From an uncultured Bacilli bacterium (GTDB lineage: Bacteria > Bacillota_I > Bacilli_A > RF39 > UBA660), in NCBI GenBank assembly GCA_947628075.1, contig CANQYF010000001.1, positions 1 through 47,652 on the forward strand: a stretch of 47,652 nt of DNA, written 5' to 3'. Below the pieces are notes generated by a model. The model did no database searches. It saw only the letters and a program-made list of their open reading frames with translations, and had not been told where the DNA came from. The translations under genes and the position numbers were made by a program. Below are positions 4,012 through 47,505 of the stretch, in pieces (within the stretch, counting starts at the first letter, position 1; each line of letters opens with the position of its first letter).

Positions 4012-5724
4012 TTAATTCATTGCTCTTTTAAACATTTTTTCTAATTCATAAATACTAAATTTAATAATTGTAGGTCTACCATGTGGACAATTATATGGAT
4101 TATCACATTTTACTAAATTTTTTAATAATCCTTCAATTTCTAACATAGATATATGTTCATTAGCTTTAATTGCCATCTTACAAGCAAGTGTAATGGCGAC
4201 ACTTTCTCTAAACTTAATAACATCAAAATCTCCATTTGTAGCAATAATTAAATCAATTATTTTTCTTATTGATTCTTCTTCATAACCTGTTTTTAACCAA
4301 AATGGGTGAGCTTTTACTAAAATGGTGTTGATACCAAATTCTTCCCAAACAAATCCCATATCATCAAAAATTTGATGATTATTTTTAAAAGAAATAAATT
4401 CACTATGAGATAACTCGATACTTATAGGGATAAGTAAATTAGTAATAGAGATTTTTTCTTCTTTTAAAGCTTCTACATAATTTTCATAATTTACTCTTTC
4501 TTGAGCAGCATGTTGATCAATTAAATATATTCCCTCTTCATTTTCACAAACAATATATGTTCCTAAACATAATCCAACCGGATATAAAACTAAACTTTTA
4601 AATTCTTCATTTTTAATAGGTTCTTCTTTTTTCTTTTCTCCAAAATCAAAAGTTTTTTGTGTTCCAATTATATCTTTAAAATCACTTAAAGATTCATCTT
4701 TTTTTTCTTGAACTGGCTCCATACTTATATTAGGTATTAATAAAGAATCATATAAAGCGTTTTTTATTGTCTTATATAATAAATCATATAAACTATCTAT
4801 TTTACTTAATTTAACATCTTGTTTAGTAGGATGAATATTAACATCTACTAAAGTAGGATCTGTTTCAATATTAATAACCACGATCGGATATTTACCATCA
4901 GGTTTATATGTATAATAAGCATCATTAATGGCGCGATTAATATCATTATTACGAACAACTCTTCCATTAATGAAAGTAACCATATGCGAACGACTAGCTT
5001 TTAAAATCTCTGGTCTACAAACATAACCATTTATTTCGTAATCATCATTTAAAGCTTTAATAGGTAGCATTTTACTTGACACACTACTACCATATATTTC
5101 ATGAATACATTTAAGTAAATCATTACTACCACTTGTTCTTACAACAATTTTATCATTATTAGTTAAAGTAAAGGCAATATTGGGTTTGCAAAGAGCTAGT
5201 TTTTCAATAAAACTTACGGTATTAGCTAACTCTGTTTGTTCACTTTTTAAATATTTTAAACGAGCAGGAGTATTATAAAACAAATTAGTAATGGTTATTT
5301 TTGTTCCTACTCGGGCAGCACTGTTTCCTTTTTCTAATATTTCTCCCCCTTTTAAATGGATAAAAGTTCCTACTTCATCTTGACATGTTTCTAAAGTTAC
5401 TTCGGAAACACTAGCGATAGATGGTAAAGCCTCACCACGAAAGCCCAAAGTATTTATAAAAAATAAATCATCATCTTTATAAATTTTACTAGTGGCATGT
5501 CTTAAAAAAGCATTAGCGGCATCAACTGCATCCATGCCAACGCCATTATCAATAACAGAAATTTTTTCTAAGCCACCCTTAACTAAATTTATTTTAATAT
5601 TAGAGGCCTTCGCATCAATCGAATTTTCCACTAACTCTTTAACTACAGATGCACATTTTTCTACCACTTCACCTGCTGCTATTTTATTAGCAAGCGTTTC
5701 ATTCATAACTTTTATAACACTCAT
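4012..5724 (-). CDS. mutL: DNA mismatch repair protein MutL
   Basis: NKIAAGEVVEKCASVVKELVENSIDA GHKL ATPase motif, and a C-terminal endonuclease region ending CPHGRPTIIKFSIYELEKMFKR. Start moved to MSVIKVMNE (5724), which aligns with Bacillus MutL. The track ORF extends to 5733. Confidence 0.93.
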   Translation of the reverse strand: MSVIKVMNETLANKIAAGEVVEKCASVVKELVENSIDAKASNIKINLVKGGLEKISVIDNGVGMDAVDAANAFLRHATSKIYKDDDLFFINTLGFRGEALPSIASVSEVTLETCQDEVGTFIHLKGGEILEKGNSAARVGTKITITNLFYNTPARLKYLKSEQTELANTVSFIEKLALCKPNIAFTLTNNDKIVVRTSGSNDLLKCIHEIYGSSVSSKMLPIKALNDDYEINGYVCRPEILKASRSHMVTFINGRVVRNNDINRAINDAYYTYKPDGKYPIVVINIETDPTLVDVNIHPTKQDVKLSKIDSLYDLLYKTIKNALYDSLLIPNISMEPVQEKKDESLSDFKDIIGTQKTFDFGEKKKEEPIKNEEFKSLVLYPVGLCLGTYIVCENEEGIYLIDQHAAQERVNYENYVEALKEEKISITNLLIPISIELSHSEFISFKNNHQIFDDMGFVWEEFGINTILVKAHPFWLKTGYEEESIRKIIDLIIATNGDFDVIKFRESVAITLACKMAIKANEHISMLEIEGLLKNLVKCDNPYNCPHGRPTIIKFSIYELEKMFKRAMN

Positions 5725-5739
5725 TACTACCATCCTACT

Positions 5740-20302: not shown

Positions 20303-20328
20303 AAATTTAAAAAGCCTAAAAAGGCTTT
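20303..20328 (-). terminator. intrinsic terminator after the 129-aa gene
   Basis: AAAGCC (20311-16) pairs with GGCTTT (20323-28), followed by a T-rich run on the minus strand. It overlaps the stop codon. Confidence 0.65.
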
Positions 20329-20716
20329 ATCTATTTAAAATATAACTTAATTCTTTTAACTTCTCTATTTTTCGTACATTTACTGGATATACTGTTGCTA
20401 CATAAGGCTTTTTATTTTTTCTTAAGCTTAGTTTAACAACGACACAAACATTTTCAGCTATTTCTTTAAAATAAAGTAATGATTTCTTATTAGGATCATA
20501 ATATACAAAAGTAGGCTCTTTGATAATTCGAGGAATATTAGATATGGTTTTGTTATAACTATCAACGCTTAAAAATTCTTTAACATGCTTAGCAATATGA
20601 ACATATAGTGATAGGGGCTGTATAATGTCAGCATTTTTATATTCATATAACTTGTATTTTTCTACTACTTCATCTGATATTATACCAACTTTTTTATCAA
20701 TGTTGCCTTTTACCAT
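20327..20716 (-). CDS. hypothetical small protein (weak resemblance to phage-type Barnase/EndoU/RelE-like PBECR nucleases)
   Basis: 129-aa ORF with an AAGGAGA RBS. The pattern HIAKHVKEF ... IIKEPTFVYYD ... SLLYFKEI ... VVVKL ... ATVYPV is reminiscent of that fold. No search was run. Confidence 0.4.
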   Translation of the reverse strand: MVKGNIDKKVGIISDEVVEKYKLYEYKNADIIQPLSLYVHIAKHVKEFLSVDSYNKTISNIPRIIKEPTFVYYDPNKKSLLYFKEIAENVCVVVKLSLRKNKKPYVATVYPVNVRKIEKLKELSYILNR

Positions 20717-21131: not shown

Positions 21132-21208
21132 TGGTGTTCTTGAAGGGATTCGAACCCTCGACCTTACGCGTCGGAGGCGTACGCTCTATCCAACTAAGCT
21201 ACAAGAAC
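21132..21208 (-). tRNA. tRNA-Arg (anticodon CCG)
   Basis: Hand-folded 77-nt cloverleaf. Acceptor GTTCTTG/CAAGAAC, anticodon stem TACGC/GCGTA with loop CTCCGAC, T-loop TTCGAAT, and an encoded CCA. Confidence 0.92.
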
Positions 21209-33337: not shown

Positions 33338-33763
33338 CTACTTAAATAATTCTAAAATGTATTTAATAACTTTTTGCTTTCCATAATAAATAGTAACTTC
33401 TCCTACTTCATTATTAAAAGCTTTACCATCTATAGTTAACTCAACTGTTTGCCAAACTTTATTATCAACTATTTTATATTCGCCAAAATCTTTAATTTGA
33501 TAACTTATCTTTGTCTTATTAAATTCTAATGTCTTACCTTTTTTGATTTTATCAGAGAGTGAGTTTTCTATTTCAATTGTCAGTATTCCATCATTTATAA
33601 AACCATAACAAGTTATCTTTTGATTAATCGAAGTAAAAAAAGCTAAAAAGACTAAATAGAAAATTAAAAATATAATACCAACAATAATTATAAAAAAGTT
33701 AATCTGATATAATTTTTGTAATTTGTCATAGTTAATTTGATAATAATTCATTCTTGACTCCAA
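33338..33763 (-). CDS. miniature HlyD/ComB-like bacteriocin export accessory protein (putative)
   Basis: 141 aa with one N-terminal TM helix and a beta-rich domain. The end, EVGEVTIYYGKQKVIKYILELF, resembles the C-terminus of LcnD/ComB-type accessory proteins. It overlaps the ABC gene stop. Confidence 0.45.
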   Translation of the reverse strand: MESRMNYYQINYDKLQKLYQINFFIIIVGIIFLIFYLVFLAFFTSINQKITCYGFINDGILTIEIENSLSDKIKKGKTLEFNKTKISYQIKDFGEYKIVDNKVWQTVELTIDGKAFNNEVGEVTIYYGKQKVIKYILELFK

Positions 33764-35792
33764 TCTCTATAATTTTTGAAAAAGCTTTTGTTTGATTTTT
33801 ATGCGATATATAGATAATTGTTTTATCTTGAAAATATTCTCGAATATTTTTGATAATTTTACTTTCTAATTTATAATCAACCTCACTTAACGCTTCATCT
33901 AAGATAATAATATTACTTTTTTTAAGTAGTCCTCTTGCTAATATGATTCTTTGCTTTTCACCTCCTGATAAATTTTTGGAATGTGGTTCGATTAATGATT
34001 CATAACGCATTGATTTTTTATTAACTATATCTTCGATTGCACATAATTTGCATATTTCCAAAAATTTATTTTCTTGCACATTACGTCCTAGCAAAATATT
34101 TTCTTTAATTGTTCCTGTAAAAAGTTTTTCATCTTGAGAAACATATAAAATATTTTTTCTTATCGTATTAAGATTTAAATCTTTAATATTTTTATTATCA
34201 ATAGTTATTTCTCCTTTTATATTATCAAACTCTTTATATAACAATTTACAAATAGTGCTTTTCCCAACTCCTGATGGTCCATTTAATAAAACGTGCTCTT
34301 TATCATTAATATTTAAATTTACATTCTTTAAAATATAATCATAATTATTATAAGAGTAACTAACATCTAAAAATTTTATATTTCCTTTTAAATTTAATTT
34401 AGCTTCTTCATTTTTTTCTTCTTCAATATTAATAAACTCTGCTATCTTTGCAAATGTTGCTTTAATATAATTAAATTTTGGTAGTAAATTAATAATATTT
34501 TGTATCGGATCAATACAATAAGATAATAAGAAGTTAAAGGTAAAAAGATCAACCAAATTTATAAGTCCCTGATAAATACACCAAAACCCATAAGAATTTA
34601 TAACAAATAAAGAACATTCGATAAAGAAACTTTTGCCTAAATTTGTTAAATTCACAAAGCTATTAAATTTAAAATTATTATATAAAAATCTCGCTAGATG
34701 CCTTTCTATTTTTTGTAATATATTATCTTTAATGTTTAAATTTTTAATACTTTCAAGCATATCGATTTGCTCAGTTATTAAGCTATTAAAATCAGTTTGA
34801 TAATCGACATTTTCTAAAACCTTTAAATATATAATTTTGCTGATTATAAAACCATAAATTATATAAAATATTAGGAAAATCAATAATATAAAAAACAATT
34901 TTTCATTAATTATATATAAGATAACCATAGATGCCAACATTAAAAGTGAATCAAGGATACCGGAGACAAAAATTTCCGAAAATAAATTTTTGATATTAGC
35001 AAGTTCGCCAATTCTCGTTACTATTTCTCCTGTCATTCGACTTTTAATATTTTTTAAAGGGAGTGAAAAAATATGCTCTATAAAATCCGGATAAATATAA
35101 GTATCAACTAAATTACTTAAATGATTTTCATAATAATCTCTTATAAAATAGATAAATATTTTAATCAATACTAAAGTTCCAAAAGCAAAGACAATATATT
35201 TTAAATAATTTAAATCAATACTTAATGCATTACTTCCAACTTTTAAATAATAACTACTAATAATAGACAATATAATCCATAGTATACTTGTTATTACTAT
35301 TTTTAAAACAAGAAACTTTTCCTTTTTAATAATGTTTAAAAATAGTTTACTAATGGTTATGCCTTTAGCCATTTTAATTATTGGTACTCGTGGATGCATT
35401 AAAATTAAATGTCCTGTAAATATGTTAGCAAAATCATCTATTAACATTTTTTTATCACCAACGCCTGGATCCATTAAATAAACAACGTTGTTTTTAACAC
35501 ATTTTATAACAACAAAATGTTCTAGTCCATTTTTCATAATTACATGTGCAATTAAAGGAAATTTTAAAGTTGACGATTTTAAATTTTTTTCTAATATTCC
35601 CACTGCATCAAATCCCCACTTTTTTAAAGCGTTAACTATATGATAAGCAGTTGTACCTTTCATATCAGTATTTGTATCTTCTCTTAGTTTTTCTAAAGAT
35701 ACATAACCGCCGTAATACATAAAAATCCATTCCATTGCACAGACACCACAATCTTTTGAATCTCTTTGAATGACCGGTTTAATATGTTTCAT
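33732..35792 (-). CDS. bacteriocin-processing ABC exporter with N-terminal C39 peptidase domain
   Basis: C39 catalytic Cys context QRDSKDCGVCA and His context EHFVVIKC...YLMDP. It has a six-TM region, Walker A GPSGVGKST, signature LSGGEKQR, and Walker B IIILDEA. Start set at the ATG (MKHIKPV) after AGGGAGG. The track start at 35807 is the RBS itself. Confidence 0.92.
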   Translation of the reverse strand: MKHIKPVIQRDSKDCGVCAMEWIFMYYGGYVSLEKLREDTNTDMKGTTAYHIVNALKKWGFDAVGILEKNLKSSTLKFPLIAHVIMKNGLEHFVVIKCVKNNVVYLMDPGVGDKKMLIDDFANIFTGHLILMHPRVPIIKMAKGITISKLFLNIIKKEKFLVLKIVITSILWIILSIISSYYLKVGSNALSIDLNYLKYIVFAFGTLVLIKIFIYFIRDYYENHLSNLVDTYIYPDFIEHIFSLPLKNIKSRMTGEIVTRIGELANIKNLFSEIFVSGILDSLLMLASMVILYIINEKLFFILLIFLIFYIIYGFIISKIIYLKVLENVDYQTDFNSLITEQIDMLESIKNLNIKDNILQKIERHLARFLYNNFKFNSFVNLTNLGKSFFIECSLFVINSYGFWCIYQGLINLVDLFTFNFLLSYCIDPIQNIINLLPKFNYIKATFAKIAEFINIEEEKNEEAKLNLKGNIKFLDVSYSYNNYDYILKNVNLNINDKEHVLLNGPSGVGKSTICKLLYKEFDNIKGEITIDNKNIKDLNLNTIRKNILYVSQDEKLFTGTIKENILLGRNVQENKFLEICKLCAIEDIVNKKSMRYESLIEPHSKNLSGGEKQRIILARGLLKKSNIIILDEALSEVDYKLESKIIKNIREYFQDKTIIYISHKNQTKAFSKIIEIGVKNELLSN

Positions 35793-35911
35793 TTTTCCTC
35801 CCTTCACTAATTACTTACGTCTTTTTTTTACCTTTTCCTTTTTTTTAAATTTAATTTATGAAATTTTTTATACATAACAACATAATATTTAGTAGTAATG
35901 AGGAGAGAGAT

Positions 35912-44657: not shown

Positions 44658-44902
44658 AAAATCACCTTCCTAATAAAAAAATTCATAAACATAAGGACGT
44701 ATTACCGTGGTACCACCTTATTTTATGAATTTAAATTCACCTTAACATTTTTAACGCCAATGAAACGAGTTACTTTACTTTACTTCAAATAACTGACTAA
44801 AAAGTGATATGAATTAATTATTTCCTATTAGTTTGCACCAACCACTAACTCTCTTTAGACTATCATTAATTCACGTGTCTTTCTCCGTCTTTTAAAATTA
44901 CA
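44658..44902 (-). promoter_or_regulatory. T-box leader controlling ileS (inferred AUC Ile specifier)
   Basis: The minus strand reads AATGATAG, AGAGAG, GGTGCAA, ..CATATCAC.. (ATC followed by A), then AAGGTGGTACCACGG (T-box motif, about 44704-44720). Confidence 0.8.
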
Positions 44903-44908
44903 TTTTAA

Positions 44909-44937
44909 ATTATATGCAAATTTTATAAATAAGTCAA
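44909..44937 (-). promoter_or_regulatory. promoter of the ileS leader
   Basis: The minus strand reads TTGACT (44937-44932), a 17-nt spacer, then TATAAT (44914-44909). Confidence 0.6.
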
Positions 44938-44951
44938 TAATTTTGCTCAAT

Positions 44952-46721
44952 TTACACTGCTATTAAAACATTACCTGTTACACCAGCTTCTTCTAATCTC
45001 TTGTTTACCCAGTCTCTATTTTCTTCGTCTTTTACTATTATGGTTATGCCATCGGTTACCCCTCTAAACATACCGGCATAAGAAGTTACTTGACTAAAGT
45101 CCGCAATTCGCATGTCTAAAAATTCTAAGGAACTATCGCCCCAAAACATGCTACCTGTATTTGTTGCATTTTCGGTATTGAAACTAGATAAATCAAGATT
45201 TGTTATTTGACTCATTCCACTAAACATAGAGGACATATTTGTAACGCTACTTGTATTAAATCCCTTTACATTTAATTTTAACAACGACTTCATATTATTG
45301 AACATTCTTGACATATCAGTTACTTTCCCGGTGTTGAATTTTGATAGATCAAGTTCTTTTAAAGAACTTACACTTTCAAACATCATGCTCATAGTTGTCA
45401 CATTGCCAGTATAAAAACTACTTACATCTAATTCAGTGAGTGAACTCATTCCTGCAAACATACTACCCATATTTGTTACTTTCATTGTATTAAAATTTGA
45501 CACATCTAATTTGGTTACTCTACTTAAACCAGAAAACATACCATACGCAGTTGTTACTTTCTTGGTATTAAAATTCGATACATCAAATTCGCTACCTCTA
45601 ATACCAAGTCCAAATTCACTAAAATTATCTATAGTCGCGGTGTCTAATTTACTAACATCTAATTTGTCCAAACTTGCCGAGCCAACAAAACATCGCCATA
45701 CATTACTATTTAAATCACTATAAAAATTGCCAAATACAATATTTTCTAAATTGGATAGCCAAGAAAAAAAATAGCTAATATTTAATGAATATATTCTATC
45801 TTTGCTTCCTATATATAAATCATAATATTGTTCTTCTTCATCTGTCTCTTTTGAAATTTCTTCTAACCAACCTATAATGCTTCCTGCTGGCGATTGATTT
45901 TTACCAGTTCCAACGTTTGTTAAATCCCAAGTTTTAATCACTGATTCGGTATTTATATAATCAACAAAATAAATATTTTTAATATATTGTGCCCATTCTT
46001 CACTTCTAAAAGCACCGTATTGATTATTATATCCAGTACTAACTAAATAAACTGCTCTTTCACCAGTTAATTCACATTTTAAATCTGTAGTATCTATATC
46101 TATATTGATATCTTTTCCTGATATATAACTTTGGTCTGTTTCTTTATTTGTTAACTCTATATATGTTTCTATACTTTTACTATTATTTCCTACTATATCT
46201 AAACTGATTGGTATTGTTGTTTTGCCATTTGTGTTTTGAAGTGTTGATAAATCAATAACTTTGTGATTTGTTCCCCATCTTAGGAATACTTTTAAATCGT
46301 CTTGCTCTAATACTGGTAATATACTATTAACTCCATTATCAACAGTAATTGTAACATTCGCTGTACATCTATAAATATTATCGTCTTTTTTTGAGTTAGT
46401 TAGTGTAATTACTCCTATATCATGAAATCCTTCACTTTTGGTTTTAACATAATTATCTTCGTCGTCAGCATAGATTGTTCCTAAATTATCTAAGCTCATA
46501 GCAGAACCATCAACATTTAAATTTAATTTAGTAGTTGGATTTTGAATACTGGCAATAGCTACTCCCTCTGTACTTCCTGTTACTACTGTTTTATTATAAT
46601 TATTTGAGTTTACTTCCACAGCAAAATAAGCATATGATGCCCCAATTAATAATACTAACAAAAATAATATTCCTATTATTAATTTTATATCGATTAATTT
46701 TTTCTTCTTTTCTCTTGTCAT
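44952..46721 (-). CDS. membrane-anchored surface protein with BspA/DUF285-type leucine-rich repeats
   Basis: 589 aa with a Lys-rich N-terminus plus a TM anchor and no lipobox. The C-terminal half has about seven units of about 26 aa of the form LDVSNFNTxKVTNMxSMFxGxSSLxE. Confidence 0.8.
   Translation of the reverse strand: MTREKKKKLIDIKLIIGILFLLVLLIGASYAYFAVEVNSNNYNKTVVTGSTEGVAIASIQNPTTKLNLNVDGSAMSLDNLGTIYADDEDNYVKTKSEGFHDIGVITLTNSKKDDNIYRCTANVTITVDNGVNSILPVLEQDDLKVFLRWGTNHKVIDLSTLQNTNGKTTIPISLDIVGNNSKSIETYIELTNKETDQSYISGKDINIDIDTTDLKCELTGERAVYLVSTGYNNQYGAFRSEEWAQYIKNIYFVDYINTESVIKTWDLTNVGTGKNQSPAGSIIGWLEEISKETDEEEQYYDLYIGSKDRIYSLNISYFFSWLSNLENIVFGNFYSDLNSNVWRCFVGSASLDKLDVSKLDTATIDNFSEFGLGIRGSEFDVSNFNTKKVTTAYGMFSGLSRVTKLDVSNFNTMKVTNMGSMFAGMSSLTELDVSSFYTGNVTTMSMMFESVSSLKELDLSKFNTGKVTDMSRMFNNMKSLLKLNVKGFNTSSVTNMSSMFSGMSQITNLDLSSFNTENATNTGSMFWGDSSLEFLDMRIADFSQVTSYAGMFRGVTDGITIIVKDEENRDWVNKRLEEAGVTGNVLIAV
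45057..45671 (-). repeat. coding tandem repeats (about 78-nt period) encoding the LRR units
   Basis: Recurrent ...GATGT(A/C)TC(A/T)AATTT(C/T)AATAC... style units, seen as the periodic protein motif F-N-T-x2-V-T-x-M-x2-M-F. Confidence 0.7.
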
Positions 46722-46763
46722 CTATTCCCAACTTCTTTATTTATTATTCTTCTTATATATTTT

Positions 46764-46794
46764 ATTATACCACATACCCCCCCCCCCTAGGCAA
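46764..46794 (-). promoter_or_regulatory. promoter of the LRR surface protein gene with a poly-G tract in the spacer
   Basis: The minus strand reads TTGCCT (46794-46789), then a 19-nt spacer (A, G11, TATGTGG), then TATAAT (46769-46764). TGG just before the -10 gives an extended -10. Confidence 0.55.
46777..46787 (-). repeat. homopolymeric G11 (C11 on the plus strand) tract
   Basis: Counted directly as ...ACATA CCCCCCCCCCC TAGG... The track's plus-strand ORF 46604..46852 reads this stretch as YPPPL (TAC CCC CCC CCC CTA), which confirms the count. Confidence 0.95.
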
Positions 46795-46816
46795 TAAAAA
46801 AAAGCCATTTAGGCTT
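46795..46816 (-). terminator. intrinsic terminator after the tRNA pair
   Basis: Minus strand reads AAGCC-TAAAT-GGCTT followed by a T9 run. Confidence 0.6.
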
Positions 46817-46830
46817 GAAATTTGCAATTA

Positions 46831-46915
46831 TGGTGCACCTGAAGGGACTTGAACCCCCACGGATATATCCACTAGATCCTAAGTCTAGCGCGTCTGCCAG
46901 TTCCGCCACAGGTGC
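46831..46915 (-). tRNA. tRNA-Leu (anticodon TAG)
   Basis: Hand-folded 85-nt type II tRNA. Acceptor GCACCTG/CAGGTGC, anticodon stem CTAGA/TCTAG with loop CTTAGGA, a long variable arm, T-loop TTCAAGT, and an encoded CCA. Confidence 0.9.
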
Positions 46916-46926
46916 AATCATAAAAA

Positions 46927-47003
46927 TGGTGGACCTCGTAGGACTCGAACCTACGACCGCCCGGTTATGAGCCGGATGCTCTAACCAACTGAGCTAGAGG
47001 TCC
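46927..47003 (-). tRNA. tRNA with CAT anticodon, most likely lysidine-dependent tRNA-Ile2 (elongator Met not excluded)
   Basis: 77-nt cloverleaf GGACCTCTAGCTCAGTTGGTTAGAGC...CTCATAA...GGTCGTAGGTTCGAGTCCTACGAGGTCCACCA. The G1-C72 pair excludes an initiator. The sequence closely resembles my recollection of Bacillus tRNA-Ile(CAU). Confidence 0.85.
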
Positions 47004-47014
47004 ATTGCTTTTTA

Positions 47015-47043
47015 ATTATACTATAACTATTTTTAAACTGCAA
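47015..47043 (-). promoter_or_regulatory. promoter of the tRNA(CAT)-tRNA-Leu operon
   Basis: The minus strand reads TTGCAG (47043-47038), a 17-nt spacer, then TATAAT (47020-47015). This sits 11 nt before the tRNA 5' end. Confidence 0.6.
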
Positions 47044-47051
47044 CCCTAAAT

Positions 47052-47081
47052 AAAAAAAATATCAGCATTTATAACTGATAT
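47052..47081 (-). terminator. intrinsic terminator after the 140-aa gene
   Basis: ATATCAG (47059-65) pairs with CTGATAT (47075-81), followed by a T8 run on the minus strand. Confidence 0.75.
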
Positions 47082-47082
47082 T

Positions 47083-47505
47083 TTAACGTTTATCTTGTAA
47101 CATATTAAGTAAATCTATTTTAAACATATCTTTGGATGCATTTGCTTTAGAAATCATTATACCTTTATAAGTTGTAAGCTCTGACATATGGCCTTCTAAC
47201 AAGATTTTAGCTGGAGTAATTTCTTCAAGCATAACTACTTCTTCTTTTAAATGAACAGTATAAATTAATTTAACTTCACCATGAATTTGTGCAAACATTT
47301 TGTCACTTGGTAATTTAAGTTCATATTTTTCAGTTCCTAATTTCTTATTTGATTCAATCTTTTCCCCTAAAAATTTACCATTTCTTAAAGCTGGATAATA
47401 ATCAAAGTTAAGCTTTTTAAAAGCAAGCATATTATACTTCTTTAATGCTCTTTCTAATTTTTTAAATTCATTTTCATTAACGTAATCTAAAACGTAACCT
47501 TTCAT
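47083..47505 (-). CDS. hypothetical protein with a weak RelE/ParE-like core pattern
   Basis: 140 aa. YELKLPSDKMFAQIHGEVKLIYTVHLKEEVVMLEEITP resembles the beta-sheet core of RelE/ParE-fold proteins. No search was run. Confidence 0.4.
   Translation of the reverse strand: MKGYVLDYVNENEFKKLERALKKYNMLAFKKLNFDYYPALRNGKFLGEKIESNKKLGTEKYELKLPSDKMFAQIHGEVKLIYTVHLKEEVVMLEEITPAKILLEGHMSELTTYKGIMISKANASKDMFKIDLLNMLQDKR

Follow-up and report, generated by a model that had tools for sequence, protein, structure and literature searches.

A G11 homopolymer in the predicted promoter spacer of a DUF285/PARCEL leucine-rich repeat gene: a candidate slippage-based expression switch in an uncultured gut Bacillota

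Why should an organism with DNA of only 26% G+C carry eleven consecutive G residues between the −35 and −10 boxes of a putative surface-protein gene, and could the length of that tract set how strongly the gene is expressed? The tract lies on a stretch of 47,652 bp (hereafter the window), which is the complete contig of an NCBI metagenome-assembled genome (MAG) and has nearly all of its genes on the minus strand. Genes of the window include polC, dnaE, ligA, pcrA/uvrD, mutL, several aminoacyl-tRNA synthetases, divIVA, sepF and the sporulation genes yqfD and spoIIIAH, and long open reading frames under table 11 indicate the standard genetic code. The host is not a mollicute but a spore-former-type member of the Bacillota with very AT-rich DNA. 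Contigs of its close relatives come from gut metagenome assemblies, with sample names alone suggesting a ruminant gastrointestinal survey as the source of some of them; samples in which such relatives occur include ERZ27249032, ERZ27249276 and ERZ27249512.

The tract is highly non-random and far outside what chance would provide. A first-order Markov model, computed with the tract itself excluded, predicts ∼4.5e-4 C/G runs of at least 11 residues in the window, and G11 is therefore not a chance feature. The Markov value replaces a shuffle-based estimate for GGGGGGGG with one mismatch, which was inflated because the shuffles keep the tract's own CC dinucleotides. G11 exceeds the length taken here as slip-prone for G/C (about 8 or more) and is over-represented relative to composition; in the run-length histogram of the 47.6-kb window every other G or C run stops at 5 residues or fewer, the next-longest having 5. 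A sequence-only reading of the same DNA had placed the tract on the minus strand between a −35 box and an extended −10 box, and every coordinate held when re-read. A search of the window, together with ∼62 kb from low-GC loci of relatives, turned up no other G/C run of at least 6. Within this small sample G11 looks isolated, and nothing points to a wider set of phase-variable genes across the genome; one tract was found in 47.6 kb, itself a small sample of the genome, and no repertoire of the kind termed a phasome in Campylobacter, Neisseria and Mycoplasma.

The elements surrounding the tract are collected in Table 1. Re-reading the sequence confirmed that a spacer of 19 nt containing G11 separates the two boxes, and the promoter does lie upstream of the ATG (46721-46719) as had been claimed, the distance from the −10 box being 42 nt and not ∼45 nt. 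Each intergenic region upstream of the minus-strand genes was scanned for promoters, and the strong promoters elsewhere in the window (six of protein genes and one of tRNA genes) have spacers of exactly 17 nt in 7/7 cases. Since all of these are at 17 nt, the 19-nt spacer of the DUF285 promoter, the only one among the strong promoters of the window, is an outlier. Spacer length is 19 nt with G11, 18 nt with G10 and 17 nt with G9, and the earlier proposal that loss of two G residues would give the optimal 17 nt agrees with the spacing of the seven other promoters. At a 17-nt offset the present sequence reads GCCTAG, matching TTGACA at 0/6 positions, and the −35 box would therefore be usable only once the tract has shortened.

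Table 1. Features of the DUF285/PARCEL gene, its predicted promoter and the adjoining tRNA operon (window coordinates)
Feature	Position	Strand	Basis or remark
tRNA promoter TTGCAG-17-TATAAT	47043-47015	-	drives the tRNA-Met/tRNA-Leu pair
tRNA-Met(cat) and tRNA-Leu(tag) genes	46831..47003	-	upstream of the DUF285 promoter
Terminator-like hairpin of the tRNA operon, AAGCCTAAATGGCTT (46816-46802), and T-run	46795..46816	-	abuts the −35 hexamer
−35 hexamer TTGCCT, 4/6 vs TTGACA	46789..46794	-	direct reading
Promoter spacer AGGGGGGGGGGGTATGTGG, 19 nt, contains G11	46770..46788	-	direct reading
G11 homopolymer (C11 on the + strand)	46777..46787	-	direct reading; candidate slippage-prone element
Extended −10 (−16) motif TGTGg, fits Gram-positive TRTGn	46774-46770	-	direct reading
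−10 hexamer TATAAT	46764..46769	-	direct reading; identical in L010
Predicted leader (5′ UTR), A/T-rich, weak GGGA/GGA Shine-Dalgarno	46722..46763	-	almost invariant among homologues
DUF285/PARCEL LRR protein, 589 aa	44952..46721	-	Pfam, NCBIfam, orthologue alignment

A homologue of the DUF285 protein with 77% amino-acid identity over the N-terminal domain was found on a contig from another metagenome (L010; ENA ERZ27249512), and it supplied the only homologous promoter retrieved. This promoter reads TTGCTT-AGGTAGCTGAGGTTATTG-TATAAT, with a spacer of 18 nt and a leader identical to that of the window, and its −35 box stands at the same position as TTGCCT (shared pattern TTGCYT). The −10 box and leader agree over 41 consecutive nt (window 46729-46769, minus strand; L010 1042-1082; 100% identical), whereas the coding regions are only about 80–85% identical. 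The most divergent segment is the spacer itself, in which 11/19 positions are shared and the lengths are 18 vs 19 nt. The G tract is absent from this one homologous promoter, and an 11-nt mixed sequence, GGTAGCTGAGG, sits exactly where the window has G11. Boxes and leader that are kept around a diverged spacer form the pattern that would be expected if the boxes are functional and only the length of the spacer matters.

Homology between the two loci reaches upstream past the −35 box as far as the adjoining T-run, a run that may double as an A/T-rich upstream element, and the sequences farther upstream are unrelated; the L010 cassette (−35, −10 and leader) stands in a wholly different context that lacks tRNA genes. 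This suggests that a promoter-leader cassette ahead of this gene family is conserved and portable, or that the leader is functional, and the DUF285 gene may bring its promoter along into differing genomic contexts. A third homologue (P0005, contig L001) matches the window in the part of the leader that its contig contains (L001 1-22); this contig starts within the leader, 11 nt past the −10 box and short of the tract position. In a related genome a DUF285 paralogue is preceded by an unremarkable promoter, TTGACA-17-TATCAT, and an upstream G/C tract, sought as a general trait of DUF285 genes, was present at none of three loci (L003, L013 and L014), more distant DUF285 genes included. The repeat lies between two boxes in the geometry TTGCCT-19-TATAAT, with boxes and leader kept in L010, and conservation together with geometry supports assignment to a putative sigma-A-type promoter that holds G11 in its spacer. 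The anatomy of this predicted promoter is better supported than it was from the sequence alone at first reading, and from it we infer the transcription start site of the DUF285 gene, expected near 46757, ∼7 nt beyond TATAAT.

Other searches for the locus gave little. An exact look-up of the 589-aa protein returned no record elsewhere, a DNA pattern with a variable gap for the tract site had 0 matches in GTDB genomes, and a profile search with the N-terminal domain retrieved no relatives from GTDB genomes, JGI metagenomes or IMG/VR. The promoter 30-mer had 0 matches in IMG/VR, and tblastn against plasmids and phages gave no match. Two loci in JGI metagenomes that matched a 22-mer of the leader (L011 and L012) were rejected as chance matches at unrelated loci. 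The homologues nearest to the protein (P0001–P0004) lie on NCBI MAG contigs.

The protein encoded downstream comprises a basic and hydrophobic N-terminus, a rare N-terminal domain of ∼300 aa and C-terminal DUF285/PARCEL leucine-rich repeats. Pfam DUF285 (PF03382) was matched with an E value of 2e-45 and 153.8 bits (cut-off 25), LRR_8 was also matched, and the NCBIfam family of PARCEL-repeat surface proteins (TIGR02167) was matched with 152.1 bits (cut-off 30) in 5 stretches. Tandem repeats of ∼25–26 aa, as in the PARCEL/DUF285 family, were thereby found above curated thresholds, and the DNA repeat units in the gene have a 78-nt period. These results (PF03382, TIGR02167) uphold the BspA/DUF285-type LRR family assigned by the sequence-only reading; the surface exposure that it had also assigned is presumptive. 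The N-terminus, MTREKKKKLIDIKLIIGILFLLVLLIGASYAYF, combines a basic n-region with a hydrophobic helix (residues 3–28 in an AlphaFold2 model that is of low confidence as a whole), a putative transmembrane anchor or signal peptide, and neither a lipobox cysteine nor an LPXTG motif is present in the protein.

The ∼300-aa N-terminal domain (window 45786-46721, minus strand) has no Pfam match and occurs in about eight proteins among 5.8 billion searched. An AlphaFold2 model of this domain, built from 5 sequences, is beta-rich and of low confidence (pLDDT 47), too poor for a fold search. At the other end of the protein, orthologues vary by whole 26-aa PARCEL units (window 44952-45700, minus strand), about 45 aa being absent from one of them (P0001, on a 43.5-kb contig, its N-domain 98% identical), and the L010 copy is interrupted (…IKNIYL*; L010 1780-1900) and resumes as a second open reading frame. 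The differences in repeat number and the broken L010 copy would fit repeat-mediated recombination or decay in the family.

The surroundings of the gene are variable among relatives. Upstream of the tRNA genes lies a gene for a 140-aa protein (window 47083-47505, minus strand) that has no Pfam or NCBIfam match. Several relatives from gut metagenomes share it at >90% identity, and in every case a Smr-domain gene lies upstream of it. Eight contigs (L002–L009) carry this protein, one of which (L002) ends within tRNA-Met. In the other seven (L003–L009) the tRNA-Met/tRNA-Leu pair is inverted relative to the 140-aa gene when compared with window 46831-47505, and there is no adjacent DUF285 gene; beyond the tRNA pair, a DAO/Rieske oxidoreductase or an MvaI/BcnI-type restriction enzyme takes its place. 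Two convergent copies of the 140-aa gene flank the tRNAs in L007. These differences could reflect a local rearrangement hot spot or palindromic mis-assembly. A genomic island was considered and rejected, there being no direct repeat of the tRNA-Leu 3′ end flanking the DUF285 gene. Two other regions of the window are of note. A small open reading frame of the PBECR3 type (phage Barnase-EndoU-ColicinE5/D-RelE-like nuclease; 20327-20716, minus strand) adjoins tRNA-Arg(ccg) (21132-21208) and may be a toxin or a mobile-element remnant. At 33732-35807 (minus strand) a Peptidase_C39 plus ABC transporter, of the kind used in bacteriocin export and processing, comes after a 141-aa open reading frame with no family match.

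Downstream of the DUF285 gene, ileS is preceded by a T-box leader (44894-44690) and has its own promoter, TTGACT-17-TATAAT (44937-44909). There is no intrinsic terminator after the DUF285 stop (44952; window 44894-44952, minus strand), and transcription of the DUF285 gene could therefore enter the ileS leader.

We propose that the G11 tract permits slippage-based control of the DUF285/PARCEL gene. In the assembled G11 state the boxes would be held 19 nt apart, two beyond the 17 nt of the organism's strong promoters, and transcription would probably be low, resting mainly on the extended −10 element TGTGgTATAAT. Slipped-strand mispairing during replication would add or remove one G per step; G10 would give the 18 nt seen in the L010 promoter and G9 would give 17 nt, each shortening step bringing the −35 box nearer to register and raising transcription. 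The outcome would be a heritable, reversible and stochastic 'volume control' of one surface protein across the population. G11 tracts are intrinsically slippage-prone wherever they have been measured, and we infer both that this tract is hypermutable in its host and that its length affects expression. Promoters of Gram-positive bacteria with a −16 region can dispense with the −35 box by way of the extended −10 element, and the perfect extended −10 found here could allow basal transcription without the −35 box, making the effect graded rather than ON/OFF. The window also carries an intact mutL with the DQHAAQE endonuclease motif (4012-5733, minus strand), so mismatch repair is probably active and slippage rates would be lowered. 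mutS is not adjacent to mutL, and the gene upstream of mutL encodes an RsgA/YlqF-like GTPase.

Slippage-based control is a plausible hypothesis to which we give marginally better than even standing, and that tract length modulates expression within the population is, on the same reading, about evenly balanced or slightly favoured. The fuller proposition, a single poly-G contingency locus that switches a BspA/PARCEL LRR protein in a repair-proficient, spore-former-type gut Bacillota from a portable cassette, is tentative and falls somewhat short of an even chance.

Among the rival readings the most serious takes the tract as real but unselected: slippage would have expanded a short, G-rich stretch of the spacer (AGG...GG, like that of L010) in this lineage alone. 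Such a tract could be neutral since the extended −10 carries the promoter, or it could be a down-mutation silencing a dispensable, fast-evolving accessory gene. We regard this reading as doubtful. It would account for the lack of a counterpart in the L010 promoter and of G/C tracts elsewhere in the lineage loci checked, and it draws on the presence of TGTGgTATAAT, on the intact mutL and on signs of decay or plasticity in the gene family, whose L010 copy is broken and whose orthologues differ in repeat number. However, five extra G residues are hard to gain neutrally in an AT-biased genome of 26% GC, the 589-aa open reading frame is intact, and decay in progress is hard to square with the perfect upkeep of the −35 box, −10 box and leader. 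G11 is moreover mutable whatever its origin, and heterogeneity of expression would follow if spacing matters.

An unlikely alternative is that the promoter or transcription start lies elsewhere, with the gene served by read-through from the tRNA operon and the tract acting as a structural element, a pause or roadblock site or a protein-binding site. The hairpin that would terminate the tRNA operon is a weak one of 5 pairs, 3 of them G-C, and the missing terminator at the DUF285–ileS junction points to a region that tolerates read-through. Against this, the cassette occurs in L010 in a different context without tRNA genes and therefore carries its own promoter, while no significant fold takes in the tract (z −0.59, not better than shuffles) and the tract has no repeat or palindrome partners. 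The earlier remark that the tract has no obvious other role is in keeping with these results.

A sequencing or assembly artefact, in which no-signal G calls of two-colour Illumina chemistry or homopolymer miscalling have overwritten a true spacer of mixed sequence, is very unlikely, for although the window is a MAG contig, the related ENA contigs have only 2–5x coverage, the mixed GGTAGCTGAGG of L010 has the same length and exact position as G11 and the L001 contig breaks just short of where the tract would lie, the tract lies 865 nt inside the contig and is shorter than assembly k-mers, hence reads must cross both flanks, the flanks are both collinear with the homologous promoter, which excludes a chimeric join, poly-G artefacts normally reach the end of the read without returning to correct sequence, a 47.6-kb contig implies reasonable coverage, and L010 departs from the window in the remainder of the spacer as well, with an indel of 1 nt, so that the equal length of 11 is weak evidence.

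Transcriptional phase variation through simple sequence repeats (SSRs) is known mainly from Gram-negative pathogens, spirochaetes and the wall-less Mollicutes, and phase variation in walled low-GC gut Firmicutes has mostly been credited to invertible promoters. If the tract varies, the present locus would join the small number of documented switches that act through a promoter-spacer repeat in walled, low-GC Firmicutes of the gut. Slippage-based control of this gene, if true, would add walled commensal Firmicutes of the ruminant gut to the organisms with SSR-based transcriptional phase variation, and DUF285/PARCEL surface proteins would be under stochastic control outside the mycoplasmas too. 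G/C tracts of at least 9 residues in very AT-rich genomes would provide a simple marker for mining MAG read sets, whereas the consensus sequence of a MAG may record just one of the states of a heterogeneous locus. Because the mechanism is already textbook, the gain would lie in taxonomic and ecological breadth and not in new biology.

Among known systems, G/C tracts of at least 9 residues mark phase-variable genes for surface structures in the AT-rich genomes of Campylobacter and Helicobacter (PMC6321876). Those tracts are mostly intragenic, act by translational frameshift, number dozens per genome and occur in species that lack MutS/MutL, whereas the present tract is single and intergenic and would act on transcription, if at all.

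The nearest mechanistic precedents are porA of Neisseria meningitidis and tp0126 of Treponema pallidum, in which a poly-G tract lies between the −35 and −10 boxes and the optimum is 17 nt (PMC7864442); they match the claim of the sequence-only reading that switching by a spacer homopolymer is an established mechanism. For tprL of T. pallidum, activity is seen with G8, whereas with G10 it falls almost to background (PMC7864442). The likeness is close, as the present G homopolymer, like theirs, is predicted to lie inside a sigma-70-type promoter of an envelope protein gene, 17 nt corresponding here to G9. The porA and tp0126 cases were shown experimentally, by length polymorphism, start sites and reporters, whereas the present locus is known from sequence alone. 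The hosts differ as well, an uncultured, AT-rich gut Bacillota bearing sporulation genes against Gram-negative and spirochaete pathogens, and the present promoter, unlike those of porA and tp0126, has an additional full TRTGn extended −10.

The closest likeness in gene family is to the mycoplasmas, whose contingency loci include the Vmc-type TA and homopolymer repeats of Mycoplasma capricolum and the poly-A tracts of M. hyorhinis vlp. Homopolymeric or dinucleotide contingency loci were described by Röske et al. 5′ of some PARCEL/DUF285 genes of M. capricolum, as were poly-G tracts within PARCEL open reading frames of M. agalactiae (PMC2996958), and Nouvel et al. reported poly-G of up to 13 residues upstream of the spma surface genes of the low-GC M. 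agalactiae (PMC2824730). The Mollicutes differ in lacking mismatch repair and in having many such loci per genome, whereas here MutL is intact and one tract is seen. The present organism, unlike the mycoplasmas, has the standard genetic code and sporulation genes, and its DUF285 protein, with no lipobox cysteine in the N-terminus, is not a lipoprotein, unlike the mycoplasma surface lipoproteins. What is shared is the DUF285/PARCEL repeat family itself, an SSR in the promoter, or more generally 5′, of a gene for a surface protein (a predicted one in the present host), an equally low-GC genome, an association with ruminants (presumed for the present host from the sample names of its relatives) and a conserved promoter and leader cassette ahead of divergent coding regions. 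The G11 tract is a real feature, and it is plausible as a further case of the mechanism described in these systems.
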